Shown here: positions 249 through 47,858 of the stretch, in pieces
How the letters are laid out: each line of letters begins with the position of its first letter
Position numbering within the stretch: position 1 is the stretch's first letter
IMG/VR virus record: IMGVR_UViG_3300032893_000030
Coordinates: 9,454 to 73,453 of that record
Source of the DNA: a virus
Strand: one strand, 5' to 3'
Length of the DNA stretch: 64,000 bases
The notes under the pieces: generated by a model
What the model saw: the letters and a program-made list of their open reading frames with translations, nothing else
What the model was told of the DNA's origin: nothing
Databases searched by the model: none
Position numbers and translations under genes: made by a program

Positions 249-947
249 TTGGTTTTGGATAATCGGGGCACTGATTATGGTAATCGTAGTTTACTGTTGC
301 TCATGAGCAATTATTTTGATCACGAATACCTGTCTCACTCCGATCTCAAATCCTTTGAGAAGAAGGTTGGTTTGCTCCGAGAGGATCCGCCAAATCTTCA
401 AGCCATTTTTGATCTTGGTACATTGATACATTCCACAATCCTTGAACCACATCTTGTAGAACACCCAGACGGTGATCCAGATTACGAACTTGCCAAGAAA
501 ATGCGCAAGACTTTCTTTGAAGATGGTCTGTGTCGGGCAATTGTGATGGGGAATGATTTTGTGCGCGAAAAAGAGTTCTATAATCCCAAAATGGAACTTG
601 GAGTCAAGTCGCGGTGTAAAATGGATGGGGCACGAACGAATCAGAAATTCTGTCTTGAATTGAAGGGATTAAATGTGATGACAGAAAATCAGTTCAATGA
701 TGCCCTGGTGAACTTTAATTACGATCGCGGAATTGCGTGGTATCTGCTCACCGCTGAATATCGTTGGGCGGTAATAGTAGGCATTAGCAAGAAAGACCCC
801 ACAAGATTGTTCAAACGGGTTGTAAAAAGAGGAGATGAATTCTATCTTGCCGGAGAACAAAAATGCATTGATGTGTTGAAACTTCTCAAGAACTACAGTC
901 CAGAGGACTTTAACGATATTGGGGGTTTTACAAACGTTCATAATTAA
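249..947 (+). CDS. PD-(D/E)XK superfamily nuclease (recombination/repair exonuclease-like)
   Basis: 232 aa ORF. D...E-x-K catalytic signature: CKMDGARTNQKFCLELKG, followed by a conserved Q/Y region. Start uncertain: TTG at 249 or ATG at 303. Sits in the nuclease/SSB module. Confidence 0.55.
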   Translation: MVLDNRGTDYGNRSLLLLMSNYFDHEYLSHSDLKSFEKKVGLLREDPPNLQAIFDLGTLIHSTILEPHLVEHPDGDPDYELAKKMRKTFFEDGLCRAIVMGNDFVREKEFYNPKMELGVKSRCKMDGARTNQKFCLELKGLNVMTENQFNDALVNFNYDRGIAWYLLTAEYRWAVIVGISKKDPTRLFKRVVKRGDEFYLAGEQKCIDVLKLLKNYSPEDFNDIGGFTNVHN

Positions 948-1011
948 ACATGGAAGCGTTAGGTAAGGATTGATTTAACATAAAAAACTAAAAAGAGTTT
1001 CCCCCAAGAAA

Positions 1012-1494
1012 ATGATAACTATTGATGATTTATTAAAGAGAATTCGGAAACACGCCTCAAGACAAGCAACTGGTATCTCTTTAAAATCAAGTGGTTATTA
1101 TGTAATCACAGTAGGTCCACATAAAGATCGGCCACTACATCGAGTTTTATTTGAGATGAATCTTGGTAGGCGATTATTGCATGATGAGATAATTCATCAC
1201 AAAAATCACAATAAAACTGACAATCGATTATCCAATTTGAAATTAACAAACCCATCCTCACATGGAAGACATCATGCAATCGACAGAGTTAAAAAAGGAA
1301 TAAATTTTGACATCAGTCAAATAGATAATCGCGGGGAAAGACATCCATTACACAAATTAAGTTTATCGGAAGTTAGAAGTATTCGTAAAAATTATAAACA
1401 CAACACCCGCGGATGGAGGCAAAAAGTAGCAGATCGATATAATGTGACAATAAGTTGCATCAAACATATTATGGCTAAACACACATGGAAATAA
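1012..1494 (+). CDS. HNH homing endonuclease (free-standing)
   Basis: 160 aa. Classic HNH motif EIIHHKNHNKTDNRLSNLKL...HGRHH. C-terminal basic DNA-binding tail typical of phage HNH_3-type homing endonucleases. Confidence 0.85.
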   Translation: MITIDDLLKRIRKHASRQATGISLKSSGYYVITVGPHKDRPLHRVLFEMNLGRRLLHDEIIHHKNHNKTDNRLSNLKLTNPSSHGRHHAIDRVKKGINFDISQIDNRGERHPLHKLSLSEVRSIRKNYKHNTRGWRQKVADRYNVTISCIKHIMAKHTWK

Positions 1495-1495
1495 A

Positions 1496-1939
1496 ATGAG
1501 CAGTTTAAATCGAGTAACACTTATTGGAAGATTAGGGAAAGATGTAGAAATCAGAACAATTGCATCAGGAGATATGGTTGCATCATTTTCCATGGCTACA
1601 TCCGAAACATGGAAGGATAAAGCAACTGGAGAAAAGAAAGAATCTACTGAATGGCACAACATTGTTGCCTGGCGCGGTCTTGCTGAGATTGCTTCCAAGT
1701 TTATGCACAAAGGCGATCTTGTCTTTATTGAAGGCAAGATGAAGACGCGTTCTTGGGAGAAAGACGGTGTGACCAGATACACCACTGAAGTCCTTGCAGA
1801 CAAAGTGATTCTGCTTGGCGGCAAACGGGAATCTTCGGCACCGCCTCCGCCAGATAGTGCGCCAGAGTCTGTGCGAAGTGCGCCGGCAAAGCAATCTCCT
1901 GCTTCAATGCAAGATGAAGTTGATTCGCTTCCTTTTTGA
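1496..1939 (+). CDS. ssb: single-stranded DNA-binding protein
   Basis: 147 aa. OB-fold SSB signature (RVTLIGRLGKDVEIR...WHNIVAWRGLAEIASKFMHKGDLVFIEGKMKTRSWEKDG). Gly/Pro-rich linker and acidic C-terminal tail DEVDSLPF (DDDIPF-like). Confidence 0.9.
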   Translation: MSSLNRVTLIGRLGKDVEIRTIASGDMVASFSMATSETWKDKATGEKKESTEWHNIVAWRGLAEIASKFMHKGDLVFIEGKMKTRSWEKDGVTRYTTEVLADKVILLGGKRESSAPPPPDSAPESVRSAPAKQSPASMQDEVDSLPF

Positions 1940-2415
1940 TCATGACTCTCAAAGAACTCGCTCAGGCATTAGTCAATAAAAAGTACTCCCATATTCCGGA
2001 GCATGCGCGCCCTGTAGTGAAATACCGAGATGGGACAGCGAATGAATTGACAAAAGCGATTCTTGCCTATTTTGAACTCAGGGGATGGAAGGCATTTCGC
2101 CAGGCTTCTGAAGGCCGATATCTGCCGGAACAGAAAGTAAAAAATGTACTCGGTCAGCAAGTGACAGTTAAAAAAGGGATGTATATCCCGCGTTCGCGCG
2201 GAGCAAAAGGCAGCGGAGATATTTCGGGGGCACTTCCTCCGCATGGGACGAGAATTGAAATTGAAATTAAGATAGGTAAGGATCGGCAATCAGATGTGCA
2301 GAAGGAGTTTCAGGCAGAGATTGAGGCCATGGGGGCCATCTACATGATTGTTCGGACATGGCAAGATTTCATCTTCCAAATTTCAAAATATGCACCAAAG
2401 AATGCTTCAGTTTGA
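1936..2415 (+). CDS. VRR-NUC domain nuclease
   Basis: 159 aa. Start overlaps ssb stop (ATGA). C-terminal GDISGALPPHGTRIEIEIKIGKDRQSDVQKEFQAEIEAMGAIYMIV matches the VRR-NUC (PD-(D/E)XK-related) motif pattern. Confidence 0.7.
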   Translation: MIMTLKELAQALVNKKYSHIPEHARPVVKYRDGTANELTKAILAYFELRGWKAFRQASEGRYLPEQKVKNVLGQQVTVKKGMYIPRSRGAKGSGDISGALPPHGTRIEIEIKIGKDRQSDVQKEFQAEIEAMGAIYMIVRTWQDFIFQISKYAPKNASV

Positions 2416-2608: not shown

Positions 2609-4207
2609 ATGATGCCCAAGAACATTACATTCGATCAGGAAGCCACCGCCAAACTCAAGGCCGGCATCGACAAACTTGCAAACGCAGTCAAGGTTACTCT
2701 TGGCCCCGGAGGGACCAATGTGATCTATGAGAAGCAATTCGGTATTCCGTCCATCACAAAAGATGGTGTCACGGTTGCCCGTGAGATTTTTCTTGAAGAT
2801 ATCATTGAGAATATGGGTGCCCAGCTCGTCAAGGCTGTAGCCAATAAGACCGCAGATTCGGCTGGTGATGGAACTACGACAGCGACTGTATTGGCGCAGG
2901 CCATATTTACGGCTGGCATTAAGAACGTTGCCGCTGGGGCAAACAGGATGGATATCAAGAGAGGAATTGATGCTGCCGTTCAACAGACGGTAGCCAATCT
3001 CAAAAAAATGAGCCAGCCGGTTTCTGGAGATGACATTCAAAAGATTGCCACCATTTCTTCCAACGGAGATGAAGAAATTGGGCGATTGATCGCAACAGCC
3101 ATGGCAAAGGTCGGCAATGATGGGATTATTACCGTAGAGGACGCTAAGGCGACCAATAAGACGGAAGTTACCATTGTTGAAGGAATGCGCCTTGCGCGCG
3201 GATTCATCAGTCCCTATTTCATTACTGATCAGGAGAAGCAGGAAGCTGTGTTGATGGATCCATGCATTTTACTGTATGAAGGTGCGGTGACCAGCATGCG
3301 TCAACTTATTCCAATTCTTGAGGCGCAGCGTGAGAACAAGAAGACACAAGGTCGCCCAGTGCTTTTGATTGTGGAAGATGTTATCGGAGAAGGATTGTAC
3401 ACCCTGATCAAGAATTTTGTGCAGAAAGCCTTTGTTGGATGTGCGATTCAATGCCCTGATTTTGGCGAACAGCGCCGCGAGATCATGAAGGATATTGCGG
3501 CCATGACCAATGCCACAGTAATCAACAAAGAAACTGGATTGACGCTGGAGAAGGCAACACCGGACCATCTGGGTGGTGCTGAAAAAGTGCGTATTACCAA
3601 GGGCACGACTATTATCATTGGTGGACACGGACAGGGACCACGTAGTCAGCAGCGCATTGCGCATTTGAAGGCGCAACTGGAAGATGAGAATGTCTCAGAA
3701 GCATCAGGCAACCAGATCAGGGAGCGGCTGGCAAATTTGAGCAATGGCATTGCTGTGATTCATGTGGGGGGAGCAACTGATGTTGAGATTCTGGAGAAGA
3801 AAGACCGGCTTGATGATGCATTACACGCAACGCGGGCCGCTGTCCAGGAAGGAATTCTTCCTGGCGGTGGTGTAGCGCTGATTAGAAGCATGCCATCTGA
3901 AGTTCCGCCTGGTAATCCGGATTTTATTACCGGTGTCGATATCATTGAATCGGCTATTCAGGAACCGCTCAAGATCATCGCTGAGAATGCCGGCCAGAAC
4001 AAAGATCTAGTATTAAGTAAGGTGCTTGAAATGGAAGGAAACGTTGGATATGATGCCAAGCAACTCAAATATGTTGACATGATTGAGGCAGGCATCATCG
4101 ATCCAACAAAAGTTGTACGTCTGGCGCTGGAGAATGCGGCATCCATCGCTGGATTGTTATTGACCAGCCGCGCAGTTATTTCTCACGTTGAACCACCGCA
4201 ACAATGA
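2609..4207 (+). CDS. groL: chaperonin GroEL (Cpn60), phage-encoded
   Basis: 532 aa. Unmistakable Cpn60 sequence, including the ATP-binding AGDGTTTATVLA motif and conserved equatorial/apical segments. Lacks the C-terminal GGM repeat tail. Confidence 0.95.
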   Translation: MMPKNITFDQEATAKLKAGIDKLANAVKVTLGPGGTNVIYEKQFGIPSITKDGVTVAREIFLEDIIENMGAQLVKAVANKTADSAGDGTTTATVLAQAIFTAGIKNVAAGANRMDIKRGIDAAVQQTVANLKKMSQPVSGDDIQKIATISSNGDEEIGRLIATAMAKVGNDGIITVEDAKATNKTEVTIVEGMRLARGFISPYFITDQEKQEAVLMDPCILLYEGAVTSMRQLIPILEAQRENKKTQGRPVLLIVEDVIGEGLYTLIKNFVQKAFVGCAIQCPDFGEQRREIMKDIAAMTNATVINKETGLTLEKATPDHLGGAEKVRITKGTTIIIGGHGQGPRSQQRIAHLKAQLEDENVSEASGNQIRERLANLSNGIAVIHVGGATDVEILEKKDRLDDALHATRAAVQEGILPGGGVALIRSMPSEVPPGNPDFITGVDIIESAIQEPLKIIAENAGQNKDLVLSKVLEMEGNVGYDAKQLKYVDMIEAGIIDPTKVVRLALENAASIAGLLLTSRAVISHVEPPQQ

Positions 4208-4596
4208 ACTTATCCAAAGGAATTCCGCTCGAAGATCGAGTGTTGATCAAACCAAAAACTCCTGAAGAAAAAGTAGGAGATTTTTATCTCGGTGAAAAGG
4301 ATATCGAGAAACCCGTTGAGGGTGAAGTCATCTCGGTAGGTCCAGGTGCCTACAGTTACGGTGAAGAATTGATGGGGTCAATCCTTGAAGGAATCAATGT
4401 TCTTATTGAGAACAAAGGGTTGCAACCCATTCAGCGGCCATATTATCAGGCAATGAAGGTAAAGCCTGGTGATTATGTGTTGTACGGTCGTCATGCCGGC
4501 ACCAAACTAAGCATCAATGGAGAGACGTATCTGATGATTCGCCAATCGGACATTTTCATGATTATCGAAAAAGAGGTAGATTCGATAAACCAATGA
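4204..4596 (+). CDS. groS: co-chaperonin GroES/Cpn10-like (extended, gp31-like size)
   Basis: 130 aa. Overlaps groEL stop (ATGA). PLEDRVLIKP...GEVISVGPG...VKPGDYVLYGRHAGTKLSINGETYLMIRQSDIFMIIE aligns with GroES. About 35 extra residues relative to bacterial GroES. Confidence 0.85.
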   Translation: MNLSKGIPLEDRVLIKPKTPEEKVGDFYLGEKDIEKPVEGEVISVGPGAYSYGEELMGSILEGINVLIENKGLQPIQRPYYQAMKVKPGDYVLYGRHAGTKLSINGETYLMIRQSDIFMIIEKEVDSINQ

Positions 4597-4760
4597 TTCA
4601 TGTCTTGGAAAATTCTGATCGACTTAGATCCGAAAGGCTTAAAAAAGCAGTCAAACGGCTTAACCAAGAAAATGATAATCGCCGTCTTGGGAAACAATTC
4701 AAGGTAATTGTATTGATGATTATCATTGCCGTGGTATTATATTTCATCCGAAAACATTAA
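4593..4760 (+). CDS. small membrane protein (hypothetical)
   Basis: 55 aa, below the ORF-table cutoff. ATG overlaps groES stop (ATGA). Basic N-terminus then a hydrophobic helix (VIVLMIIIAVVLYFI). Confidence 0.3.
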   Translation: MIHVLENSDRLRSERLKKAVKRLNQENDNRRLGKQFKVIVLMIIIAVVLYFIRKH

Positions 4761-4926: not shown

Positions 4927-4952
4927 GGTCCCCGCTACAATGAGCGGGGACC
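4927..4952. terminator. GC-rich hairpin between convergent genes (putative bidirectional terminator)
   Basis: GGTCCCCGCT-acaatg-AGCGGGGACC. Perfect 10 bp stem at the convergence point of the + groES block and the - GT2 gene. It overlaps the GT2 stop codon. Flanking U-tracts are weak. Confidence 0.35.
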
Positions 4953-5702
4953 ATTAGGGTAGCGTTCCTTCACCCACTCTTTGATAAATTTTGGCAAGTC
5001 ACTTTGAATCGGAATGACATCTTCTGTTGCAAAGAATCTTGATGGATCAAATTCTTCAATCCCCTCAATGCGGCGCTCTGGTTCTAACCGAAACACTTCA
5101 TTGATCATGTGACGGATCTTCACAAGGTGTTTCTTTGGGTCACGCACGTAACCCATGTGAAATATGTGAATGTTCTCCATGAAATTAAAACACACTTCAT
5201 TGCAAGCCAGACTCTCCGCGTCATCATAGCACCGGTATTTGGTTTTTGCCAATCGAAGCACTTCTGTTGAGCACGGCTTACGCTCCTGTGGAACATTGAG
5301 TTGATGCCAAGGATCATAGAACAGGTTGTGCCGCTTGACCATGTACGATTCAAATCCATACTCGATTGCCTCTCTAATGAGGGGGAATGAATCTTCGTGG
5401 ATGATCTCATCCATCTGGAGATAAAATTGGTAATCGGTTTCAAGGCGACTGATGGCCATATTGGAAAAGTAGCTGAGTTTCTCTTTTCCTTGTTGGTTAC
5501 GCCATTCTTCTGGAGCACACAGAATAATGGTGGTTTTTTTATCTCCAAGTTTCAATAGATGCTCCTGTGTTCCGTCCGTAGACCCAGCATCCAGGACAAT
5601 GACATGATCCGCTAACTCCTGCATGCAGGCAATAGTTTCGCGGAAATTATAGTCTTGCTCTATGGCATTGTAGACGAAAGAAGCACATCCAAGTGTTTTC
5701 AT
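4935..5702 (-). CDS. glycosyltransferase family 2
   Basis: 255 aa. N-terminal GT-A motif VIVLDAGSTDGT and a DxD-like region (LQMDEII). Confidence 0.8.
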   Translation of the reverse strand: MKTLGCASFVYNAIEQDYNFRETIACMQELADHVIVLDAGSTDGTQEHLLKLGDKKTTIILCAPEEWRNQQGKEKLSYFSNMAISRLETDYQFYLQMDEIIHEDSFPLIREAIEYGFESYMVKRHNLFYDPWHQLNVPQERKPCSTEVLRLAKTKYRCYDDAESLACNEVCFNFMENIHIFHMGYVRDPKKHLVKIRHMINEVFRLEPERRIEGIEEFDPSRFFATEDVIPIQSDLPKFIKEWVKERYPNGPRSL

Positions 5703-5726
5703 TAAATTAGAGGTAAAATTACAGTT

Positions 5727-5975
5727 ATGGCATACGAAGATGATGATGAAACCGAAGGACCAGGTGCCCCGCCAGCACAGCCATCTGACAAAAAGAAACT
5801 CAAGCAGCGCATCAGTGATCTGAAGATGGATAAGCGCGTTGGTAAATGGGTGGGCGATCCGGATAATCCTACCCGTGGAATATATAAGGCACCACGATCA
5901 GAACAGCGTGAATACCGCAAGACCATCAAACAAAAGATCAGAAATTTGAGGTCTGGCCTGCCGGAGGATAGTTGA
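5727..5975 (+). CDS. small basic hypothetical protein
   Basis: 82 aa. Acidic N-terminus, Lys/Arg-rich remainder. GAGGT upstream of the ATG. Lone + strand gene between - strand enzymes. An alternative antisense ORF 5702..5980 looks like a low-complexity artefact. Confidence 0.4.
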   Translation: MAYEDDDETEGPGAPPAQPSDKKKLKQRISDLKMDKRVGKWVGDPDNPTRGIYKAPRSEQREYRKTIKQKIRNLRSGLPEDS

Positions 5976-5976
5976 T

Positions 5977-6519
5977 TCATATTTTCTGGGCAACAACGTA
6001 GAATGAATAGCGGTCGCGTCCATGATCTTCTCCGCTTTTTACGTGAACAAATCGCGCCTTAATGTTGCGTCCATTATAATCATAAGCTCCTCCACAGAAT
6101 GCGCGCTCGAAGAAGAACATGAAATTCATGAATGTGTAAGCGCGAATGTGCTCTTTGTTGTCATAATGATTATAGTGAATACCGTTCGGTAGATATAATA
6201 CCAGATGTCCACCAGGCTTGAGAATCCGATGCCATTCAGTGATCATCGCATAATCGTCCAGCACATGCTCGAGGAAATGCGAAGAGAATACGGTGTCAAA
6301 ATGCTGAGCAGGGTATGATGGGAATTCTCCTACAAAGGTTACCCCTTCCAGTTTACGTCCGTCCACTCCATCTGCCGAAGAAACAATCTTGTCCGGGCCG
6401 CAACCCCAATCCACAATTCGCCCTTTGATAAAACCCATCAATTCTGGCATGTCACGAACCTTGGCGGATTCAGACATATAAAGTTTCAGTTTAGGATCAT
6501 TGTTGTTTTCCATTGACAA
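5977..6519 (-). CDS. class I SAM-dependent methyltransferase (MT type 11-like)
   Basis: 180 aa. Motif I VDWGCGPDK and motif post-II LKPGGHLVLYLP. A second enzyme at 15520..16128 shares the HF(L/V)EH..LKP(G/E)G pattern. Confidence 0.8.
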   Translation of the reverse strand: MSMENNNDPKLKLYMSESAKVRDMPELMGFIKGRIVDWGCGPDKIVSSADGVDGRKLEGVTFVGEFPSYPAQHFDTVFSSHFLEHVLDDYAMITEWHRILKPGGHLVLYLPNGIHYNHYDNKEHIRAYTFMNFMFFFERAFCGGAYDYNGRNIKARFVHVKSGEDHGRDRYSFYVVAQKI

Positions 6520-7921
6520 AGGATTTGATACGGGTAATGATTGAAGTTGTGGTGTGCGTAATACATGGAGGCAGAATAGTATTTATCTGGCAATTTTGTC
6601 CGCGTACAGAAATCACATCATGGTAACAACCGGCAAACTGGCAATCATTTTGTACTACCTCAATATTGGTAAGATCAGCATACCGATAGGCGGGGTTTAC
6701 AGATCCGAAAAATATCATCGATTTTACTCCGCATGCTACCGCAATGTGAGCTGGGCCAGAATCCAATCCGATAAAGAAATCCGCTCCGGCGATCACGAAA
6801 CTCAACATAGCCTCTGTCATAGTTTCCATCTTAACACCCACGCCATGGTCCTCTCTTCCAACCTGAATCGCGATGTATCCTAATGATCGGACAAATTCGC
6901 CAATACGTTTCCAGTCAACGCCATGAACATATCGGTGCGGCATGTCATTATGGTCCAGATGGAATACGATGTACTTTTTGAATAATCTGGTTTTATCAAC
7001 CTTGATGTTCAATCGAGAATTTCTCAGCGGACCCTTTTTGACCTTAGAGAACTGATAAAATGACTTTAGTACTAATTGCTGTGGAGTGACCTCATAGGTC
7101 ATATCCAGGTTGATAGTGAGTGGATTAAACAATGTGCCTTCCACATCATCATAGAATTCAATCGGGAAATAGTGATTTTTAAAGAGAGCATAGTTCTTCT
7201 CAGTTGTCTTCAAAATTATCCGATAACCATTGCTGTAATACCATTCCATGACTGGCTCCAGCATGATCACATCACCCATCGCCATGTGCCGGACAAATAC
7301 TACAGGCGGTTTCCATGGGGGATGAAAATAATTATGGAATCCAAAAGTTGGTCCTTTTGGGGCATGTAGTTCATAGCTGAATGAATGAGCAAGATCATCA
7401 GGGGCATAACGTATACCTTGCTTTTCCAGATAACCTCTGTACAGCCGACAGATTATTTCATCCTCTGGAGAACAGATATCAATATTGGTATCACTGATAA
7501 GCAGGTCATGCAATTTTTTTGTACGCATTGAAAATCCACCATTGCCGACATTGCGGCCGTCACGGTACATCCATGGAGCGCCGATGTAATCGTACTCAAG
7601 GAATCTGTCATCCCAGGCGTCCGCATTGATGACATAGCCATCATGCTGGATGATCATTACATGAGAAGTCTCAATATACTTACCCATTTCTTTGACGATA
7701 TAGCGATTGTAATCGACTACCGATCGAAATGGTTCAATCAACACGCACTGAAAGGCCGTGGATTCAAATTGGATGTCACAGAACAAAATCACTTTCGCAG
7801 GTGCAATCTGCATGAGTGTTTTGTGAATGGCGGTGATTGTGTTGCCGTAATCTTTGGTTGTGACAGCAACCACTGTGACTTCTGGAAGCTGTAGGCGATT
7901 ATCCTGCGAGTTCTCTGACAT
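6497..7921 (-). CDS. two-domain glycosyltransferase: N-terminal DUF5672-like domain fused to GT9 (heptosyltransferase-like) domain
   Basis: N-terminal half has YDYIGAPW...GNGGFSMRTKK, which is DUF5672-like. C-terminal half has MAMGDVIMLEPV... and FFIGLDSGPAHIAVACGVKSMIFFG, the GT9 signature. The longest ORF starts at 7996 but would overlap the upstream gene by 98 nt. In-frame ATG at 7921 preferred. Confidence 0.7.
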   Translation of the reverse strand: MSENSQDNRLQLPEVTVVAVTTKDYGNTITAIHKTLMQIAPAKVILFCDIQFESTAFQCVLIEPFRSVVDYNRYIVKEMGKYIETSHVMIIQHDGYVINADAWDDRFLEYDYIGAPWMYRDGRNVGNGGFSMRTKKLHDLLISDTNIDICSPEDEIICRLYRGYLEKQGIRYAPDDLAHSFSYELHAPKGPTFGFHNYFHPPWKPPVVFVRHMAMGDVIMLEPVMEWYYSNGYRIILKTTEKNYALFKNHYFPIEFYDDVEGTLFNPLTINLDMTYEVTPQQLVLKSFYQFSKVKKGPLRNSRLNIKVDKTRLFKKYIVFHLDHNDMPHRYVHGVDWKRIGEFVRSLGYIAIQVGREDHGVGVKMETMTEAMLSFVIAGADFFIGLDSGPAHIAVACGVKSMIFFGSVNPAYRYADLTNIEVVQNDCQFAGCYHDVISVRGQNCQINTILPPCITHTTTSIITRIKSFVNGKQQ

Positions 7922-8744
7922 AAGATTCAAAACAGCGTTGATAATAAAAGTCGTATGCTTTTTCTCCAGTTGGAATATTGCATGGCGCAAAGTCACATGC
8001 TTCCAGTATTCGAGGCACTTTTATTGCCTCAGCGAGTGCCATGCACAGTGATTGGTTGCCGATAAAAAATGAAGAAGATTTTATGACGATGGCTAATTCC
8101 AAAAAATCATTCACTCTCAGGAGTGGAATTTTGAGGTTGAATTTTTCACTGAAATCGCGCCACTCATGATCCAGGCCTGCAAAGAGAAGGCGCGACTCAA
8201 GCGGCTTCAAAAATGAATAATTGATTTGCTCATTCCGATATCGCTCCGTGCGATTGATGATGATTGTGTTTGGCGGCACCATATCATTGGTTGGTACAAA
8301 AAGCCATGGCTTTGAAATATCACAAGCCATTTCAGGATAAATGTAGAATGGCCAGCGCGTGATACAGCCATACGGTTTGTTGATGTCCACATCCGGATTT
8401 ACCATCATGTCCAGATCGATGTATGTCTTGCTTTGATCTATCTCAGGGATGAACTGATATTCTGGTGTCCCTTCATTTTCTCGCCGGTAAGTGAAGGTAC
8501 TCACTTCAACAATCCAGTCTTGCGACAGGAGAAGAGGCTTGAGCATTTTGACGTTGTGTTCTTGCAAAAGAATTCCATCGTCAGGATGCTTTGCTCCTTC
8601 ATAAAAGAACCCGATCAACCCTAATCCTAGATGAAGATGCGCTGGCCGATTAAACTTCCGGCAAACTTCCCGGATGCCGGCTAGTGACTGAATCAAATCT
8701 CCTGGTAGAAGAGAGAATTTGAAGTTTATCGGATCGGTTGTCAT
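7899..8744 (-). CDS. GT9-like glycosyltransferase (heptosyltransferase homologue)
   Basis: 281 aa. C-terminal LLFAGLDHEW...FFIGNQSLCMALAEAIKVPRILE matches the GT9 nucleotide-sugar binding region. Confidence 0.65.
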   Translation of the reverse strand: MTTDPINFKFSLLPGDLIQSLAGIREVCRKFNRPAHLHLGLGLIGFFYEGAKHPDDGILLQEHNVKMLKPLLLSQDWIVEVSTFTYRRENEGTPEYQFIPEIDQSKTYIDLDMMVNPDVDINKPYGCITRWPFYIYPEMACDISKPWLFVPTNDMVPPNTIIINRTERYRNEQINYSFLKPLESRLLFAGLDHEWRDFSEKFNLKIPLLRVNDFLELAIVIKSSSFFIGNQSLCMALAEAIKVPRILEACDFAPCNIPTGEKAYDFYYQRCFESYVRELAG

Positions 8745-8765: not shown

Positions 8766-9059
8766 TTGATTCAACTTAAAAAAAATTCTATGGCACGTTC
8801 AATTGATGTCCTTGTTTACCACTTTGTTGCCGGCGATCCTAACGGAGGACCCGCGAAATTGCTGGGTACGAGGCGCAGAGGTATCTCCGTGGATAACATC
8901 TTGGCACTTGATTCAGTCAATGTCCGAGGCGGGATGTCCGTCTACGGCCTTCCCATGCTGTATGGGAAGATTACATTGAAGCAGCCAGGATTGAGCCAGG
9001 AACTCTTCGTCATCGACACGGTTCAAGATCTCCTCAACAAAGAGAATACAGGAAACTAA
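8766..9059 (+). CDS. hypothetical protein (terminator-insulated small gene)
   Basis: 97 aa ORF. Probable start ATG 8790 (MARSIDVL...). AT-rich upstream region containing TAATTTTG. Followed by two hairpins. Confidence 0.4.
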   Translation: MIQLKKNSMARSIDVLVYHFVAGDPNGGPAKLLGTRRRGISVDNILALDSVNVRGGMSVYGLPMLYGKITLKQPGLSQELFVIDTVQDLLNKENTGN

Positions 9060-9066
9060 AACGAAA

Positions 9067-9090
9067 ATGCCGGAGCGTAATCCGGCATTT
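9067..9090 (+). terminator. hairpin ATGCCGGA-gcgtaa-TCCGGCAT
   Basis: 8 bp GC-rich stem immediately after the stop of the 8766..9059 gene. Short T stretch follows. Confidence 0.35.
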
Positions 9091-9125
9091 CGTGGCAACT
9101 TCCTCATTATTTGTTTTTCGGTTGT

Positions 9126-9160
9126 GCCTTCGGGGTGGTTCCCGAAGGCTTTTTTGTTTC
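9126..9160 (+). terminator. rho-independent terminator
   Basis: GCCTTCGGG-gtggtt-CCCGAAGGC followed by TTTTTTGTTT. Textbook intrinsic terminator. Confidence 0.7.
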
Positions 9161-9212: not shown

Positions 9213-9941
9213 ATGATTTTTTTGGAGGATTATTTCATTGTTCGGCCTGATTCATTCTATGCCGAGAAGAAAACCGCAACGGGACTTGAAACCCTCAATA
9301 CAGCATGGATCATGCGCGGTGATCGCGATGAAAACGAATTCAAATGCCTTAAAGGAACCATCATTGCCTCCCCGATCGGGTATTCATTGAACCGGTATTC
9401 GCCAATTGATCGCGGACTTCCAAATCATCGGCTATTCATCAGCCATGACCGTCTTCAGTATCGCGAGAATACCGGAGCCAACATTGAGAAAACCCCCTAT
9501 CATCCGGGAATGATGCTTGATTTCAAATACCTGAGTTTTCAAGATTATGCCCAGCGCGTAACAGCAAAAAAGGGTGATCAAGTCTACTTTCATCCACATG
9601 TAACCGAACAGGAAAATCTATTTCCGGATGGCACCTATAAAGTGCGTGTTGATCAATTGATCTGCACACTCGATCCTATCTGTCCACAAGGCCAATATGT
9701 ATTGATCCAGCCGGTTATGGAATCCGAAGATGAGATCACCATGGGTGGATTTCAAATCAAAATTGAGGCGCAAGTAAAAGCACTCCAGGGAATTGTGCGG
9801 TACACGAATAATGGGATGGTGAGTGCTGGAGATCATGTAATTTTCGAAGAGGCATCTGATTGGGAAGTTGACATTGAGGGTGAAAAATTTTATGTGATGC
9901 AAATGGAAAATCTCCTGATGAAACTAAAACCAGCAGTATGA
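9213..9941 (+). CDS. tandem (double) Cpn10/GroES-fold protein
   Basis: 243 aa from ATG 9213. Table ORF starts at 9111 but that would include the terminator. C-terminal half ITMGGFQIKIEAQVKALQGIVRYTNNGMVSAGDHVIFEEASDWEVDIEGEKFYVMQMENLLMKL aligns with GroES (TAGGIVL...GEVLAVGNG...VKVGDIVIF...IDNEEVLIMSESDILAIV). N-terminal half has a weaker repeat of the same pattern (FIVRPDSFYAEKKTATGL...KGTIIASPIG...KKGDQVYFHPHVTEQENLFPDGTYKVRVDQLICTL). Confidence 0.5.
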   Translation: MIFLEDYFIVRPDSFYAEKKTATGLETLNTAWIMRGDRDENEFKCLKGTIIASPIGYSLNRYSPIDRGLPNHRLFISHDRLQYRENTGANIEKTPYHPGMMLDFKYLSFQDYAQRVTAKKGDQVYFHPHVTEQENLFPDGTYKVRVDQLICTLDPICPQGQYVLIQPVMESEDEITMGGFQIKIEAQVKALQGIVRYTNNGMVSAGDHVIFEEASDWEVDIEGEKFYVMQMENLLMKLKPAV

Positions 9942-40355: not shown

Positions 40356-41813
40356 TTAGAACAGATCGTACACTCCGAGAATGTGCTTTTGCGATCCCAC
40401 CACGCGAACGCCCTTTTCAGAGCCTAAGCTGATAGTTCTCAAACGCTGTGTGTTGGTAGGCACCGGAGCATTACCACCTGTTTGCCAGATTTTGTAATGT
40501 CCGCGCGAACCTCCACCGACTTGGCGCTTGTACATGATCGTGAAAGCGTCCATCGGAATTCCCGTCTTTGCATCCTGCGTTTTGTCCATCGGTGCGATGA
40601 TGAAGTAGTAAGGATACGGACGGCCGGGGATATTGGTCAACTGAGGATTGTTGAGAATCCGCAGTTCTTTCATGTTGAATGTGGCCCCGGGAATGGTGAT
40701 GGAGTCGATGCCCAGATCAACGGCCTTGTGATCATACACAATACTACCATTGTTTCCAAGGGCAGTGATTGTGTCGGACGCAAGATATCCGAATTCCTGG
40801 CCATACCACATCATGCAATCCCGCTTCTGGTTCAACCTGTTGCGCAGGCGGGCCAGTTGCTTGTACAGCGTGAAGGTGATGTTGTCACCATATTGCTGAT
40901 GTGGAGCATTGGCATCCAGCACGGGGATATATCCGTTCGAAGTGGTCAGCGTTTTGTTGCTGGCACTGATCGGATCATACACTACGGCAGCGGCATCCGC
41001 AGCCGGTACTACGAACAATCCCATGGCTTCCATGGTGAGGAACACGTCCTCAGTGTCGCGCAGACCGATTTCATGCCAGAATTTGATGGTCTGACCGGTC
41101 TGCGGATCATAGATTTCGTAGGTCTTGTTCATTTCCTGCTTATCGGTCACGTTGTACACGTTTCCGAAGGTGGACAGATAGCTGCGGTAGGTCGTGAAGA
41201 CCGGTACAGAACCATCCTGCATACCCCAGGTTGCTTCTTCGAAGTTCGCTGTGGGTAGCGTGATTTGGTCGCCTCCATAGGTAGATCCAACCAAGCTGAT
41301 GGTGGCTGAAAGTGCCGGATATGAAGCCGAAAGCGGTGTGATGTACAGTCGGTGCGCATTTGCGACCGATTCGCGCTTGCCCTGAATTCGCCAGAAATAC
41401 TTTCCGGTGAATTCGATGATCATCCCCACACGCGGATAAGACTTCGTGTTGGTCAGATCACCAGCCGTGGGACTGTGGGACAGCGGAGAAAGCTGCACAT
41501 ACTGATAGCCGGAGAAGGCCGCAGGATCACCATTGCCAACCGATGCCGTTCCGTACACGTTGGTGATAACCGTGTCAGAATTCAGATAAGGCGCATCGAT
41601 GATTTTTCTTTTCTCGCGGTGAATGATTTCTTCACCGAAGACTTCTTCCATCATCCCCATCTTCATGAAATCTCCGACATCGGATTCCAGCGGGTTGACG
41701 TTGAAGAGTTCTTTTACGATCTGAGGTTCCAAAAGGAACTCGATATTGGAGATTAACGGATAGGCCTCGGTGGCCGCTACCGAAAAATCTCTGTACGTGT
41801 TAGTCGTTGCCAT
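40356..41813 (-). CDS. major capsid protein
   Basis: 485 aa. Sits directly downstream of the scaffold gene and upstream of a strong terminator. Composition and size fit HK97-fold phage capsid proteins. Order is TerL-portal-scaffold-MCP. Confidence 0.8.
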   Translation of the reverse strand: MATTNTYRDFSVAATEAYPLISNIEFLLEPQIVKELFNVNPLESDVGDFMKMGMMEEVFGEEIIHREKRKIIDAPYLNSDTVITNVYGTASVGNGDPAAFSGYQYVQLSPLSHSPTAGDLTNTKSYPRVGMIIEFTGKYFWRIQGKRESVANAHRLYITPLSASYPALSATISLVGSTYGGDQITLPTANFEEATWGMQDGSVPVFTTYRSYLSTFGNVYNVTDKQEMNKTYEIYDPQTGQTIKFWHEIGLRDTEDVFLTMEAMGLFVVPAADAAAVVYDPISASNKTLTTSNGYIPVLDANAPHQQYGDNITFTLYKQLARLRNRLNQKRDCMMWYGQEFGYLASDTITALGNNGSIVYDHKAVDLGIDSITIPGATFNMKELRILNNPQLTNIPGRPYPYYFIIAPMDKTQDAKTGIPMDAFTIMYKRQVGGGSRGHYKIWQTGGNAPVPTNTQRLRTISLGSEKGVRVVGSQKHILGVYDLF

Positions 41814-43244: not shown

Positions 43245-45632
43245 TTACTTTTCAGATTTTTCAAGTTGTTTCCTGTCCTGCGCTGCCGCTTTGACAAGAG
43301 ATGATTCATGTTGTTTATCTGCCTTATAATTTTCGCTTCGTGCCCGCATTGCCTCTTTCAGAATCATATCGATGCCAGCCTGCTTCTTGATTTGCATTTC
43401 CACCATGTCAGAAACCTTGTTCACTTCGCCCTCGAGCATGGCTTTCTTGGTCATCAATGCATCATCAATCTTGGCCTGAATGGCCATTAATTCCTTGGCA
43501 TCCGCCTGTTTCTGCTGCAGAAGTGCCATTTCCATCTGAAGTTTACGCTGGTCGGACTTTTCACCAGCCTGCATCTGGAATTGTTGATCCTGCGCGCGCA
43601 TCTTCAGCGCCTTGGCTTCATTGATTTTCTCGCGGTTGGCCATGATCTGGCGGGCCATCTTCATGTTTCGGATGTCACGAATAAATGCGCTATCGCTGGC
43701 ATTGAGTTTGCCTTCCTTAACGTTTGAAGCCAGTTCATTGTAGAAATCAATCCACTCTTCTTCCGTTGGTTCACGTTCCATGACAAGGCCATATTCGCAG
43801 TAGGCAATGTCATCCGGAACTTCAAAGAATTCGGTCGTTGATGTACCAAGGGCAGGAATCATTCCTTTGATGGCTACTTTATCGCGCATTGATTCCTGGG
43901 CCAACAAAAGCATGATATGACTAGCCTGTTGATAACTCTGAAGCCGTCCGTTGACCAAATATTCAATTGCATCAGATCCGGCATTGACATTGGCCTTCAT
44001 CGCCCCCACCGCCAGGCGATCCGGCAATGAGGCAGATTCAATCACGGTTGATCCGCTGAGTTCATCAAGGAATCGAATCGAAGTGGTGATTGTGTTGAAA
44101 TAATCAGCAAGCGTAAGTCCAGCGCCAATTTCACGGATTGCCTCACCGACTTGTTGGCCGTAGGCTGAGATATTCCTCCGACTGATGATGATGTTGCTCT
44201 GCATGAAAAAGTCAATAACATCATTGGCATTCCAAACCTTCCCTCCGCGGGTAAGAGCCACTTCATCCAGCGCAGTCAGGTTCAGGTCCAGAACGCCCAT
44301 GCGGCCTTTGGCCAGGATATCCTTGATCTTATTCCACGCGACATTGATCATGGTCAGTGGTTCAATCATCTGTGACACCAGACTCACCACGCGACCCTCT
44401 TTCATGTTGGGAGCAAAGGTGATAATTGGCAGGCGCTGATTGACCAGATTCAAACGCGGCATTTCTTTGCGGCCATAGTTGAATACAACTTCACTGTCAA
44501 TCACCCAACTGCCGCCATACAGAGAAGTGTACTGATTGCGAATTACCGAGCTGTTCTTCAGAGGGTTTTTTGCCGGATTGTATTCATAATGCCGTTCTTC
44601 GATCTGTGGATTGCCGTAGCTATTCTTCCATACCTTGAATGCGCGCGAATCATTGGACAAGAAATAGAAACGCATCACCGGTATATAGTCCAAACCATCG
44701 AAATTCTTATAAAATTCAGGTAAGGTTCCGTAGGTAACCCCCGCGTTGGGGAAGGCGTGGCTGGTGAGAACCTGATCAATTTTATCCTTTGACAGAGTGC
44801 CTTCTACTTCTTTTTTGAACTGATTGCGCGTGATAAAATCCACGAAGAAGGCATATTCCTGCCGGGAATAGTCTTCATTCTCCACGTAAGAACCACCCCA
44901 ATATTTGGGATTTATCCGGTGAATCCGTGGCACCTTGTTGCGATCATTGAAGCAGTGCATGTGCCGGCGACCAAGGACCACAGAATCCCAATCGGTTTCA
45001 CGTAACACCTGGTCGGTGTTGTTAATCGAATGCAATAAGCGCAAGGTCTTTTCGGCATCAATAACCTTCTTGATCTTCTGGTTGACGCTTAAGTCAAACA
45101 TCAATTCTTCAGGATATTCCGGCAGAAGCGACACATCGAGTTCCGGAAAAATCTGCTGGGGATCAACCTTAAGCGATTTGAACCAATCTTTAAGTTCGTA
45201 CAGAGTCCTGATTTGAGCATTGTAGGACTTGGCTTCATCCACGGAGATTGGGTCAACAGCAGAAAGCGCGATGTTGTAGCGATACCGTTGCAGTTTAGCC
45301 ACCGCGCGGTTTACGTACTTCGTACACAGATTGAGTACCTGGATATCGATATATGCCAGCGACTGTTGATCATCTCCCGTCTGACCCCGGTCAGTAAAGT
45401 ACCCATACATCCGGAAGATGTTATCAACAGATTGCCGCCCTTGCGCTACCTCGACAAGTGCATTGTAGGTGGAGTCTTCAGAATAAAGACGATATCCATA
45501 TCGATTGGTCGCATAATACATTGCTCTGGCCTCAGCCAAGCCAAACCAATCTTCCTCCTTTTCTTGTGGAGGGGTATATTCATCTGGAAATTGGAAACTA
45601 AGTCCTGTGCGACTTAACTCTGAAGATGCCAA
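43245..45632 (-). CDS. portal protein (large, ~795 aa, C-terminal coiled coil)
   Basis: Located between TerL and the scaffold gene. Size and charged coiled-coil C-terminus resemble large podovirus-type portals. Table start is TTG at 45632 with no upstream in-frame ATG. Confidence 0.8.
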   Translation of the reverse strand: MASSELSRTGLSFQFPDEYTPPQEKEEDWFGLAEARAMYYATNRYGYRLYSEDSTYNALVEVAQGRQSVDNIFRMYGYFTDRGQTGDDQQSLAYIDIQVLNLCTKYVNRAVAKLQRYRYNIALSAVDPISVDEAKSYNAQIRTLYELKDWFKSLKVDPQQIFPELDVSLLPEYPEELMFDLSVNQKIKKVIDAEKTLRLLHSINNTDQVLRETDWDSVVLGRRHMHCFNDRNKVPRIHRINPKYWGGSYVENEDYSRQEYAFFVDFITRNQFKKEVEGTLSKDKIDQVLTSHAFPNAGVTYGTLPEFYKNFDGLDYIPVMRFYFLSNDSRAFKVWKNSYGNPQIEERHYEYNPAKNPLKNSSVIRNQYTSLYGGSWVIDSEVVFNYGRKEMPRLNLVNQRLPIITFAPNMKEGRVVSLVSQMIEPLTMINVAWNKIKDILAKGRMGVLDLNLTALDEVALTRGGKVWNANDVIDFFMQSNIIISRRNISAYGQQVGEAIREIGAGLTLADYFNTITTSIRFLDELSGSTVIESASLPDRLAVGAMKANVNAGSDAIEYLVNGRLQSYQQASHIMLLLAQESMRDKVAIKGMIPALGTSTTEFFEVPDDIAYCEYGLVMEREPTEEEWIDFYNELASNVKEGKLNASDSAFIRDIRNMKMARQIMANREKINEAKALKMRAQDQQFQMQAGEKSDQRKLQMEMALLQQKQADAKELMAIQAKIDDALMTKKAMLEGEVNKVSDMVEMQIKKQAGIDMILKEAMRARSENYKADKQHESSLVKAAAQDRKQLEKSEK

Positions 45633-45665
45633 TGTTGAAGATTTGATACCAAAGATAGTTTGTTT

Positions 45666-47858
45666 TTACAAAACTCGCTGTCCTTGCACCGGAACCAATT
45701 TTCCATTGACCATCCGGAAAGTCCGGAAATAATGACTCACATCTTTGGCTTCCGGTGGTTTATACCCCTGGCGCATCCGGGGAATAAGTACCAAATTCCC
45801 ATACGCTACCGCATAATCATGGGGTTTTGTCTTCAGTGGATTAAAAATCAATAAATCTTCCACCACTTCGATAAAAGGAATGGTATGCCCGAAATAATCC
45901 ACTTCGGTGCTCAAGGCGGAGGTATATTCATTGATGATCAATGGCGAAGCTGGTGTGCCTTCCACATCATCGGATCGTTTCACTTTTTCCGGATCAGGGA
46001 CATACTTCTTCCAAATGAAGTCTATACAACCAGCATCTCTAAACCAGTTGATGATGCCTGGCTTCTGCGCCTCTACTTGCAACTTCACACTCAGTAACCA
46101 GCAAATCATCAAAGATCGCTCAAAGAGAATATTCGGATCTGTTGGTCTGGTGTCCATCATCCATATCAACTTGTTGGTCTTGTAAGGATACTTATCTCGC
46201 GCGCGTTGCTCCAGAATTTCCTGCGTAAGTTGTCCATCGATAGCCGGATCATATTTCCTGCGCACTAGCTGCACCGGCCGCGACCGGCGTGAACTCACAT
46301 ACTCATCCTTTTCCATGATGTTCTCGATGACTACACCATGGTCAATAGGGTCGATAGCGGATTCAAAAATTTCATCATTCTTCGGAAAGAATAACTGCCG
46401 ACCACCTTCCTGTCTGCGTCCCACATTATTCAGCCAAGCCTTTTCTTCTGCTGTCTTGGGTAACCAAATACAATCCAGCCATCCATTATCTGGATTATCA
46501 ATCATCACTACATTAGTGAAGCGCCGGTTGTTCTCCCATTTCAAATCTACGCGGCGGCGGATTGGAGGATTTATCAATAAATCCGATTTTTGATCTTGCA
46601 GAATTGTTGCATTGAACTCACAATTTTCACTTGAGATATAAAAGACTTCATTCCAGTTTAGCGGATATTTGCGTACAAGTTCTGAATAGTCTTTTGGCTT
46701 ATCTTTGACTTTGCTACGCTTGATCATTATTTCCTTAGTTGCTCTCTCTCGTATCGGGAATCCCCACTCGTCAATACAGCCTTCCATTGCACAATCTGCC
46801 GGCATCAGTGCAGCATATAGACCCGAAGTCGTTTCGCCATCTTCACCTTTGTCATCAAAGTCACTTTCATAAACCAACTTCTTGTATGCCTTACCTCCTG
46901 AAGTCGAAGAATTAAAAAACTCCACCGTAGTTCCGAGAAATGCTTTGCCAATAATATTGATGCCAAGTGTCAAACATGGTTTTACACGACTCCAACGTTC
47001 ATGCACACTATAATCCTCCGTTTTGCCAGGCTCCTCCATGCCATAACTATGTAATTTTCTTTGGTCATACTTTCCGGATTCACTCGAGCGATAATCCAAC
47101 ATTGACTCTAATACAAGTTTACTAGTAGATTGAATTCGTTTTTTATTTCGCCTGGGTGCATCTCGAAAAATGATCCCTCTTTTTTGCAGTGTACTAATGT
47201 CATACGTGGGTTTGAAAAAATACGAGAATTTATAGAATGGTTCAATGACATGTTCTTCGTAAAAACTTTTGATTTTATCATTTGTCTCTCCTTGCATTCC
47301 AGAAATATGCCGGAAATTTGTGCAGGTGCGATTCATTATCCAAAATCCCATCTTCGCTGATTTTCCCATACGACGACCGGAGTTCAGCGCACCCCCGTAA
47401 GATTTTGGATCTTCCTCCCAATATTGAATCCAATAAAAAATTTCACGATCGGCCTCCCAATAATCAGGTGGCCCAAAAAGAGGATTCCAATGACATAAAT
47501 ATTTGTAGTGATATCCTGTTAAGTAAGTTTTTCCTCCTTTCAGCCAAAACCAAATACCATTTTCACTTCGTGTCCATTCCTGATCTTCCCATTTGTTAAT
47601 TTCCTCTTGATGCGGATGAATATAATTTGGATTGATATTTCTTTCTTGTTCAAATTCATTCATCCAAGCCTGCAAATAATCTGGAGGAGTCGGACGCACG
47701 AATTTGTGGTCCTCAGAAAGCGTCAATACTTCTGAATCAGCAGGTTCTTCTGGAAGATAGACCTCCTTGATACCTGCACCCTTGATGCCGGTGATTAAAT
47801 ACTGAAAATGATACGGATTATTGGTCTTGGCAAACACCTTGGTTCGGTTGTGAACCAA
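45666..47858 (-). CDS. terminase large subunit
   Basis: 730 aa. Walker A-like GRRMGKSAKMG. Conserved acidic nuclease-domain residues toward the C-terminus. Lies immediately upstream of the portal gene. Confidence 0.75.
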   Translation of the reverse strand: MVHNRTKVFAKTNNPYHFQYLITGIKGAGIKEVYLPEEPADSEVLTLSEDHKFVRPTPPDYLQAWMNEFEQERNINPNYIHPHQEEINKWEDQEWTRSENGIWFWLKGGKTYLTGYHYKYLCHWNPLFGPPDYWEADREIFYWIQYWEEDPKSYGGALNSGRRMGKSAKMGFWIMNRTCTNFRHISGMQGETNDKIKSFYEEHVIEPFYKFSYFFKPTYDISTLQKRGIIFRDAPRRNKKRIQSTSKLVLESMLDYRSSESGKYDQRKLHSYGMEEPGKTEDYSVHERWSRVKPCLTLGINIIGKAFLGTTVEFFNSSTSGGKAYKKLVYESDFDDKGEDGETTSGLYAALMPADCAMEGCIDEWGFPIRERATKEIMIKRSKVKDKPKDYSELVRKYPLNWNEVFYISSENCEFNATILQDQKSDLLINPPIRRRVDLKWENNRRFTNVVMIDNPDNGWLDCIWLPKTAEEKAWLNNVGRRQEGGRQLFFPKNDEIFESAIDPIDHGVVIENIMEKDEYVSSRRSRPVQLVRRKYDPAIDGQLTQEILEQRARDKYPYKTNKLIWMMDTRPTDPNILFERSLMICWLLSVKLQVEAQKPGIINWFRDAGCIDFIWKKYVPDPEKVKRSDDVEGTPASPLIINEYTSALSTEVDYFGHTIPFIEVVEDLLIFNPLKTKPHDYAVAYGNLVLIPRMRQGYKPPEAKDVSHYFRTFRMVNGKLVPVQGQRVL

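Follow-up and report, generated by a model that had tools for sequence, protein, structure and literature searches.

How might a bacteriophage that encodes its own GroEL close the folding chamber, and how does its lid compare with the lids of other chaperonins? This question is raised by a locus in a 64,000-nucleotide stretch of viral DNA, referred to here as the window (positions 9,454 to 73,453 of the IMG/VR record IMGVR_UViG_3300032893_000030), in which a gene for GroEL (Cpn60) is directly followed by a gene for a GroES-type co-chaperonin (Cpn10) of 130 amino acids (aa). Judging from sequences and structure models, we consider it most likely (probability about 0.7) that the two products form a functional cage, and that this cage is a cognate one for the structural proteins of the phage. 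The predicted lid has an expanded roof hairpin. In addition, gene calls on the source contig flagged a second Cpn10-domain gene 4.6 kb downstream of the first. The positions of all these features are listed in Table 1.

The product of the first gene passed the test for a full-length group I chaperonin. Residues 23-525 of its 532 aa matched PF00118 (Cpn60_TCP1) with E=4.1e-61 and 207.6 bits, the gathering cut-off being 34.3 bits, and the protein matched the PHROG family 'chaperonin groEL' at 5.5e-147. We numbered its residues by mapping them on E. coli GroEL, to which it is 49% identical. The residues of ATP binding and hydrolysis were all as in the E. coli enzyme: the GDGTTT motif, D52, D87, T89-91, I150/S151, D398, G415/G416 and D495. 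Since all of them are conserved, the protein is probably an active ATPase. Seven of the eight apical hydrophobic residues that bind substrate and GroES were identical or conservatively exchanged (Y199F, Y203, F204, L234I, L237, L259, V263I), V264K being the sole non-conservative change. An initial annotation of the locus had described both the ATP-binding and the ring-contact motifs as intact; this holds for the former, but not for the latter, as five of seven inter-ring contact residues are substituted (E434P, R452K, E461N, S463D, V464L) and only K105 and A109 are unchanged. The closest bacterial GroELs keep all seven canonical residues, and they are also unaltered at two further positions that differ in the window protein (R13T and A126Q). 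Furthermore, the C-terminal GGM tail is absent, the final residues being ...SHVEPPQQ. In a database of 5.8 billion proteins, the closest GroELs were bacterial and came from Bacteroidota (Cyclobacteriaceae, Flammeovirgaceae), with 55-57% identity; across our comparisons, identities to bacterial Bacteroidota GroELs were 55-58%. The best viral GroELs retrieved from IMG/VR reached at most 53%, and the GroEL of Cellulophaga phage phi38:1 34%.

The GroEL stop codon and the Cpn10 start codon share four nucleotides (ATGA). The gene order, GroEL then GroES, is the reverse of that in the bacterial operon, and the exact coordinates, the overlap and the order were all as initially annotated. The sequence upstream of the Cpn10 start contains no Shine-Dalgarno (SD) motif. 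Because of this overlap without an SD motif, translation of the two genes is likely to be coupled, which would give coordinated synthesis of ring and lid.

The 130-aa protein matched PF00166 (Cpn10) with E=9.9e-19 and 67.6 bits, far above the gathering cut-off of 21.1 bits, and the PHROG family 'co-chaperonin GroES' at 8.9e-15, so that the profile searches confirmed the assignment of both genes. Identical copies of the protein are encoded on six contigs from Joint Genome Institute (JGI) and Logan assemblies, the longest of 73.5 kb, and it is therefore not an assembly artefact. The protein is 33 residues longer than the 97-aa E. coli GroES, close to the 35 extra residues estimated earlier. The roof hairpin accounts for about 24 of the additional residues, and the C-terminus and the N-terminus are extended by about 7 and about 3 residues, respectively. 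The Pfam match falls in two stretches, hence the extra length is an insertion. Residues 8-52 aligned to residues 7-52 of M. tuberculosis Cpn10, and residues 85-123 to residues 61-99; from this alignment we conclude that residues 53-84 stand in place of about 8 residues in the roof (dome) hairpin. If the roof segment is taken as the stretch between the VGxG and VKxGD motifs, it comprises about 36 residues, compared with 12 in E. coli GroES. Thus, the short hairpin of about 12 residues that marks GroES-type lids is not found here: its strands are kept, and a helix is inserted between them. The mobile loop is one residue shorter than that of E. coli GroES; G-D-F-Y-L aligns with the G-G-I-V-L of GroES, so that the hydrophobic tripeptide I-V-L is replaced by F-Y-L.

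The AlphaFold2 model of the protein agreed with these assignments. Its mean predicted local distance difference test (pLDDT) score was 76, with values above 90 in the barrel core and below 50 at residues 22-27, as expected of a disordered mobile loop. The roof strands (residues 49-52 and 79-82) were retained in the model, and a helix was placed at the hairpin tip (residues 61-71). By an estimate of amphipathicity, this helix is predicted to be amphipathic, and so are the corresponding stretches in the relatives described below. Foldseek ranked canonical GroES/Hsp10 structures first, with E of about 2e-6 and target-normalised TM-scores of up to 0.88. We predict from sequence and model that the protein binds GroEL through its mobile loop.

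The insertion site was shared by only two proteins in a large protein database, P0002 (128 aa, 41% identity) and P0018 (124 aa). The gene for P0002, on contig L004, lies directly after a GroEL gene, overlaps it by four nucleotides and, like its counterpart in the window, faces a convergent glycosyltransferase family 2 (GT2) gene on the opposite strand. When IMG/VR was searched with a Cpn10 alignment, one more member came up, L054/L079 (IMGVR_UViG_3300006052_000009, 72.9 kb), which encodes a 533-aa GroEL and a 120-aa Cpn10 with the same 4-nt overlap; the roof insertions of this Cpn10 and of P0002 are clearly homologous. This contig is syntenic with the window over the exonuclease (46% identity), the resolvase-like protein (58%), GroEL (48.5%), Cpn10 (32%), GT2 (37%), a DUF5672/GT9 protein (47.5%), a 281-aa open reading frame (ORF; 46%), a 246-aa tandem Cpn10 (43%) and a tail-fibre-like protein (40%). 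Since synteny is kept at 32-58% identity, these sequences indicate purifying selection on the module, including both roof-position expansions, through substantial divergence. A neighbour-joining tree, which was a rough one (distance method, midpoint root, no support values) and was used for this pairing only, joined the GroELs of the window and L004. IMG/VR searches with the L004 GroEL and with P0018 gave no relatives, and among 33 IMG/VR GroEL relatives there was none with the GroEL-GroES order or a long-roof lid; it took the Cpn10 alignment, and not the GroEL search, to detect L054/L079.

The second Cpn10-domain gene encodes a 242-aa protein. Its C-terminal part matched Cpn10 in Pfam (7.8e-9) and in hhalign (96-98%). 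Relatives were detected only by an exhaustive HMMER scan and by structure-based searches. The former yielded 139 cluster representatives of one family, of which 35 had E<=1e-10. A word-indexed protein search with the same protein returned itself only, and neither tblastn against cultured phages nor a pattern search of IMG/VR gave a match. With the family profile, the N-terminal half matched the Cpn10 profile as well (91% in global mode; 89.8% in local mode, E=1.7e-6; reversed control 0.1%). This required the profile, as the N-terminal half was not significant when used as a single sequence (0.7%). The short N-terminal domains of the proteins from cultured phages matched the other half of the Cpn10 profile (80.5%) and were homologous to the long N-terminal domain (99.1%). 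The AlphaFold2 model (pLDDT 85.3, predicted TM-score 0.77) found its best structural matches in chloroplast Cpn20 and Cpn23; in BFVD, the best matches were phage proteins of about 186-300 aa, including the 'Chaperonin cpn10' of Cellulophaga phage phi18:3. We therefore regard it as very probable that the protein is a tandem of two Cpn10 domains, with the caveat that the halves barely detect each other: their direct comparison gave 65% locally over 16 columns and 4.5% globally. Domain 1 (residues 1 to about 150) is enlarged at the roof position by about 60 inserted residues (57-116, positions 9381-9560); domain 2 (about 151-242) has no roof hairpin. Both domains retain a G-I/L motif at the position of the mobile loop. 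A strong terminator-like hairpin lies just upstream of the gene and supports both its start codon and a separate transcription unit. Together with a second hairpin placed back to back, it separates the gene from a short plus-strand ORF (8766-9059) that lies downstream of a glycosyltransferase island.

The tandem protein also connects the window with cultured phages. The only cultured relatives of its portal protein were those of Cellulophaga phages phi38:1, phi40:1 and Calle (Pervagoviridae), Maribacter phage Panino and the freshwater (Manatee Spring) podovirus MW202828, with about 20% identity (E=4e-15 for the Cellulophaga phages). With a two-domain cpn10, GroEL, and portal and structural genes of the phi38:1 type, the phage is Pervagoviridae-like, an assignment that rests on the module, the portal and the structural genes. 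It is a tailed phage with a genome of about 73 kb and a distant relative of the Pervagoviridae and of the Elemovirus podoviruses of Bacteroidota. Its host is probably a member of the Bacteroidota, as are the hosts of all cultured members.

A three-part chaperonin set is shared by the Pervagoviridae (phi38:1, phi40:1, Calle), the Elemovirus phages and the Manatee Spring podovirus. In phi38:1, GroEL (gp005) and a 91-aa Cpn10 (gp007) are encoded beside the Holliday-junction resolvase and DNA polymerase genes, similar to the location of the window GroEL near replication and recombination genes; the third part is the 194-aa 'co-chaperonin GroES' gp089, whose gene overlaps the start of the large terminase gene and which matched our tandem family profile at 96.5%. 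The Flavobacterium Elemovirus phages have an annotated GroEL (gp43), an overlapping 83-aa GroES (gp44) and gp30, and in the Manatee Spring podovirus, groEL is overlapped by the 'chaperonin 10 kd subunit' gene behind it, with a two-domain gene present as well. Thus, the GroEL>GroES overlap is common to the Elemovirus phages, the Manatee Spring phage and the window. The two-domain gene lies directly upstream of the terminase gene in Elemovirus, overlapping its start, and one short ORF upstream of it in MW202828, whereas in the window it is located about 36 kb from the terminase gene, at the far end of the structural block. A tblastn search with gp089 matched 77 phage records, namely 68 Flavobacterium elemo phages, 7 Cellulophaga phages, Panino and MW202828, and the phage groups in question are the same ones that carry GroEL. 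Bartlau et al. count 'chaperonin cpn10' among the core and signature proteins of the Pervagoviridae (PMC8776804), and in the study of Nishimura et al. 36 of 78 phi38:1-like environmental genomes contained GroEL (PMC5332604).

What these phages share with the window is thus GroEL, a single Cpn10 and a two-domain 'cpn10'; the sequences and the lid shapes differ. The GroELs of the Pervagoviridae, Elemovirus and the Manatee Spring phage are only 34-35% identical to that of the window, and their single Cpn10s are not alignable with its Cpn10 by BLASTP. The lids of the relatives have 83-101 aa and 180-194 aa, compared with 130 and 242 aa and large roof-position insertions in the window. The roof of the single lid is missing in Elemovirus and the Manatee Spring phage, short in phi38:1 and about threefold expanded in the window clade; the two-domain lids of the relatives are roofless. 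The GGM tail is absent from the GroELs of L004, Elemovirus, the Manatee Spring phage and phi38:1, and is present in most viral GroELs of the GroES>GroEL order. We conclude that the three-gene chaperonin set is already typical of this phage group, and that what is new in the window is the shape of its lids.

The initial annotation had held viral GroEL genes to be rare and a co-encoded GroES gene to be rarer still, a view that the records do not bear out. Marine et al. 2017 reported GroES on 133 of 337 GroEL-bearing virome contigs, 70 of these in the order GroEL>GroES and with structural genes resembling those of Cellulophaga podoviruses (PMC5649160); to these come the annotated pairs of the Elemovirus phages and the freshwater podovirus, and in a collection of cultured phages, 228 records in total hold a GroEL match. 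The window, which stems from a JGI metagenome, shares with the marine virome operons the position of the GroES gene right behind GroEL in viral DNA, but their co-chaperonins (clusters 6, 7 and 16) lack a roof hairpin, whereas the roof in the window is expanded about threefold. The window pair shares with E. coli GroEL/GroES the folds, the ATP residues, the apical groove and a mobile loop with a hydrophobic tripeptide; the gene order is opposite, and the GGM tails of E. coli GroEL are absent from the window protein.

Because the ATPase site, the apical groove, the mobile loop and the barrel are conserved, GroEL and the 130-aa Cpn10 probably form a working cage. In the mechanism that we propose, GroEL with its conserved ATPase residues would be the first part. 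The second would be the single-domain lid, produced from the same message by termination and reinitiation at the ATGA overlap; its mobile loop (F-Y-L) would dock on the apical helices H and I of GroEL and so close the folding cage. The third part, the tandem Cpn10 that corresponds to the core 'cpn10' of the family, would be transcribed separately. In the long-roof clade (the window, L079 and L004), the lid would bring about 24 extra residues, including the predicted amphipathic helix at the hairpin tip, to the dome apex, where seven insertions would surround the sevenfold axis as an outer crown or as a lining of the inner cavity, two arrangements between which the monomer model does not discriminate. 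GGM tails normally fill the floor of the GroEL cage; their loss would remove this floor. A weaker double ring, as described for some phage chaperonins (PMC7185714), may result from the substitutions at the inter-ring contacts.

Structural proteins that the phage produces late in infection would be the likely clients, such as the putative 53-kDa capsid protein encoded by a 485-aa ORF of the window. This ORF is syntenic with the gene for phi38:1 virion protein gp093, its product is weakly similar to gp093 (E=9e-4), and its GC content at third codon positions (GC3) is the highest on the contig (0.62). Pfam and PDB sequence searches for a capsid protein gave no confirming match for it; from its position and sequence, it is probably the major capsid protein. 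A dedicated capsid or fibre folding machine, as envisaged in the initial annotation, would be plausible.

Several points weigh against this reading. The helix at the hairpin tip was modelled at a low pLDDT (56-64) and in a monomer only, and the choice of the 485-aa protein as a candidate client is a guess from synteny, the weak gp093 match and GC3. V264K in the GroES-binding groove and the inter-ring substitutions could be signs that the protein works by another mechanism than E. coli GroEL/ES. The tandem gene is a second gene of the co-chaperonin type, and either lid could serve the window GroEL. Finally, a cage cannot be assumed for phage GroELs in general, as the EL chaperonin, which has been characterised, is atypical and has no known lid: gp146 of phage EL did not bind E. 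coli GroES and appears to act without encapsulation (PMC7185714). EL gp146 and its counterparts in OBP and AR9 are lid-less phage GroEL homologs and, like the window GroEL, possibly have weakened ring-ring contacts, but EL gp146 is only 22% identical to GroEL, whereas the window protein shares 49% identity with the E. coli protein and is encoded together with one or more lid genes of the phage.

What, then, is the role of the tandem protein? By analogy, it may serve as an alternative or an additional lid. Chloroplast tandem Cpn20 and single Cpn10 form mixed lids of seven domains (PMC5780408, PMC4242682), and in the same way three tandem chains and one single Cpn10 could supply seven Cpn10 domains in the phage, which would solve the even/odd symmetry problem. 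In favour of this, a single-domain Cpn10 and a two-domain one accompany GroEL in the window phage and in each of its relatives, the tandem protein has its best matches in structure searches with Cpn20 and Cpn23, and the G-I/L motif is present in both of its domains; nevertheless, we consider such a lid unlikely, since the two genes lie 4.6 kb apart in separate transcription units, and Cpn10 is core in the Pervagoviridae but GroEL is present in only about half of the phi38:1-like environmental genomes. This difference suggests that the tandem protein can act without phage GroEL and the single Cpn10. As the tandem gene is more widely conserved in the lineage than GroEL, its product is probably able to work alone, perhaps with host GroEL. 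A more elaborate version, in which a chloroplast-like 3+1 lid carries roof insertions (about 24 and about 60 residues) that form a crown gating or enlarging the chamber, is likewise speculative and, in our estimate, improbable; if true, tandem co-chaperonins would have arisen independently in a widespread group of Bacteroidota phages. Relationship to the chloroplast and apicoplast proteins Cpn20, Cpn21 and Cpn23 is limited to the Cpn10 domain: the window protein is 17-18% identical to them, and compared with the Cpn20 type its domain 1 is highly divergent and has the insertion of about 60 residues. The tandem Cpn10 of the window is probably of independent origin.

The initial annotation had likened the enlarged Cpn10 to T4 gp31, and the extra residues could accordingly enlarge the chamber for a large capsid protein. 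T4 gp31 and RB49 CocO are indeed phage-encoded co-chaperonins of the Cpn10 fold and are presumed to act in capsid folding. The putative capsid protein of about 53 kDa would be near the limit of the cage, loss of the GGM tail would add volume at the floor, and roofless gp31-like lids do exist in the Elemovirus and Manatee Spring relatives. However, gp31, which uses host GroEL, is defined by a deleted roof hairpin and a longer mobile loop (PMC5649160), and the window lid is its opposite in both respects, with an expanded roof and a loop that is not longer but one residue shorter. Foldseek placed gp31 at rank 34 only, with E=0.03 and 11% identity. Moreover, mass at the apex could shrink or plug the chamber as easily as enlarge it. 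We rejected a gp31-type identity on the anatomy of roof and loop and on the Foldseek ranking, and consider a chamber enlarged in the manner of gp31 very doubtful.

It is just as doubtful that the 130-aa Cpn10 is not a working lid at all, the real lid being the tandem protein, on the phage ring or together with host GroEL, with the 130-aa protein diverting host GroEL or having a role outside the chaperonin. By the published core-gene list, the tandem family is indeed wider in the lineage than GroEL, and V264K in the GroEL groove could shift the specificity for the lid. On the other hand, the overlap of GroEL and Cpn10 is kept in three diverged members of the clade as well as in Elemovirus and the Manatee Spring phage, and this conserved tight overlap argues for co-production and a shared function.

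The GC content and codon usage of GroEL and Cpn10 are within the range of the other phage genes, thus there is no sign of a recent import. The best GroEL matches (bacterial Bacteroidota, 55-57%) might suggest that the region is a piece of bacterial chromosome or what is left of a host groESL operon; this has a negligible probability and was rejected, since the contig carries terminase, portal and virion genes and no cellular housekeeping genes, contigs of up to 73.5 kb match the 72.5-kb genomes of the phi38:1 type, the gene order is reversed relative to bacteria, synteny with the viral contig L079 is extensive, and the composition is phage-native. The phage setting assumed in the initial annotation, in a block of genes for DNA metabolism, is therefore correct: exonuclease-like, HNH endonuclease, single-stranded DNA-binding protein (SSB) and resolvase-like genes lie upstream of GroEL, the exonuclease and resolvase-like genes also in L079.

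Table 1 Positions of the chaperonin genes and of other features in the window
Feature	Positions	Strand	Basis or content
Recombination/replication genes upstream of GroEL	249..2415	+	PDDEXK/exonuclease VIII-like, HNH endonuclease, SSB, resolvase-like
GroEL (Cpn60), 532 aa	2609..4207	+	Pfam and PHROG matches, residue mapping
ATGA overlap, GroEL stop / Cpn10 start	4204..4207	+	Sequence
First Cpn10, GroES-type co-chaperonin with expanded roof hairpin, 130 aa	4204..4596	+	Pfam, AlphaFold2, Foldseek
Mobile loop of the first Cpn10, residues 18-38, KTPEEKVGDFYLGEKDIEKPV	4255..4317	+	Alignments, pLDDT
Roof-hairpin insertion of the first Cpn10, residues 53-84	4360..4455	+	Alignments, AlphaFold2 model
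55-aa ORF, start overlapping the Cpn10 stop (ATGA)	4593..4760	+	ORF list, gene call on JGI contig
Minus-strand island between the chaperonin loci	4935..8744	-	GT2, S-adenosylmethionine (SAM) methyltransferase, DUF5672+GT9 fusion, 281-aa ORF
Terminator-like hairpin paired with 9126-9149	9064..9091	-	
Terminator-like hairpin, 10 pairs and T-run, just upstream of ATG 9213	9126..9149	+	
Tandem Cpn10 (Cpn20-like), 242 aa	9213..9941	+	Pfam, family profile, AlphaFold2, structure searches
485-aa virion-protein ORF, putative ~53-kDa capsid protein	40356..41813	-	Synteny, weak phi38:1 gp093 match
Portal and large terminase (tailed phage)	43245..47858	-	Portal 43245-45632, large terminase 45666-47858

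The surroundings of the two chaperonin loci showed some further features. The HNH endonuclease gene (1012-1494) is an outlier in composition (GC 0.34, GC3 0.25, compared with about 0.45 for the contig). L079 has no equivalents of this gene and of the adjoining SSB gene (1496-1939) between its exonuclease and resolvase-like genes, so that this segment (1012-1939) looks like a mobile insertion. Behind the first Cpn10 gene, the 55-aa ORF, which could be a third cistron, encodes a hydrophobic stretch at its C-terminus, VIVLMIIIAVVLYFI; BLASTP gave no match for it in L079. The genes of the minus-strand island were assigned by Pfam and PHROG matches. The GT2, DUF5672/GT9 and 281-aa genes of the island are conserved in L079 (37-47.5%), in which no match to the methyltransferase was found. 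SD-like motifs precede 2 of 38 genes of the window, compared with a background of 8.8%, and the leaders are A-rich. This near-absence of SD motifs fits a Bacteroidota host, and so do the best GroEL matches (Cyclobacteriaceae, Flammeovirgaceae). The Bacteroidota -7 motif TAnnTTTG was not enriched (34 matches, 43.6 expected), and its copy at 2578-2585 was not used. A scan for sigma-70 promoters and terminators gave no clear operon boundaries except for the hairpin pair at 9064-9149, and no tRNA genes were found in the window.

Insertions at the same site of the roof were also seen in other viral Cpn10s, namely L049 (2947-3411), L053, L057, L066 and L073/L074, none of them with a GroEL gene within 3 kb. 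The insertions of L049, L053, L057 and L066 comprise 30-45 residues, and that of L049 is Cys-rich (...CCDSPPQACPCREC...), which makes metal binding possible. The lineages L049/L053/L057/L066 and L073/L074 acquired their insertions independently, and the roof tip appears to be a recurrent insertion site. In P0018, which is encoded on an ENA contig of 691 bp, the insertion STLVLILKLLIFFVGKWMW is strongly hydrophobic and resembles a membrane helix. The GroEL relatives L014 and L037 from IMG/VR have no detectable Cpn10; a conserved ORF of 73-75 aa (L014 9623-9850, L037 9626-9847) starts on the last base of their GroEL stop codon, and its product could be an unrecognised, highly reduced partner protein.

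To summarize, a virus-encoded group I chaperonin with a downstream lid is known, and so is the chaperonin module of Pervagoviridae-like phages. We found no earlier description of a GroES-type lid with an expanded roof, or of the core 'cpn10' of this lineage as a tandem, Cpn20-like protein. To our knowledge, phage GroEL/GroES pairs have hardly been studied biochemically. The lineage represents a natural series of lid designs on one scaffold, all of them with GroELs that lack the GGM tail, in which cage geometry can be set against the clients. Tandem co-chaperonins have been regarded as specific to chloroplasts (PMC5780408); tandem Cpn10s in phages would extend this architecture beyond them and raise the same question of symmetry. 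The cultured relatives phi38:1, Calle and Elemovirus make this question testable. For annotation, it means that the 'GroES' proteins of about 180-250 aa in these phages should be labelled as two-domain proteins.

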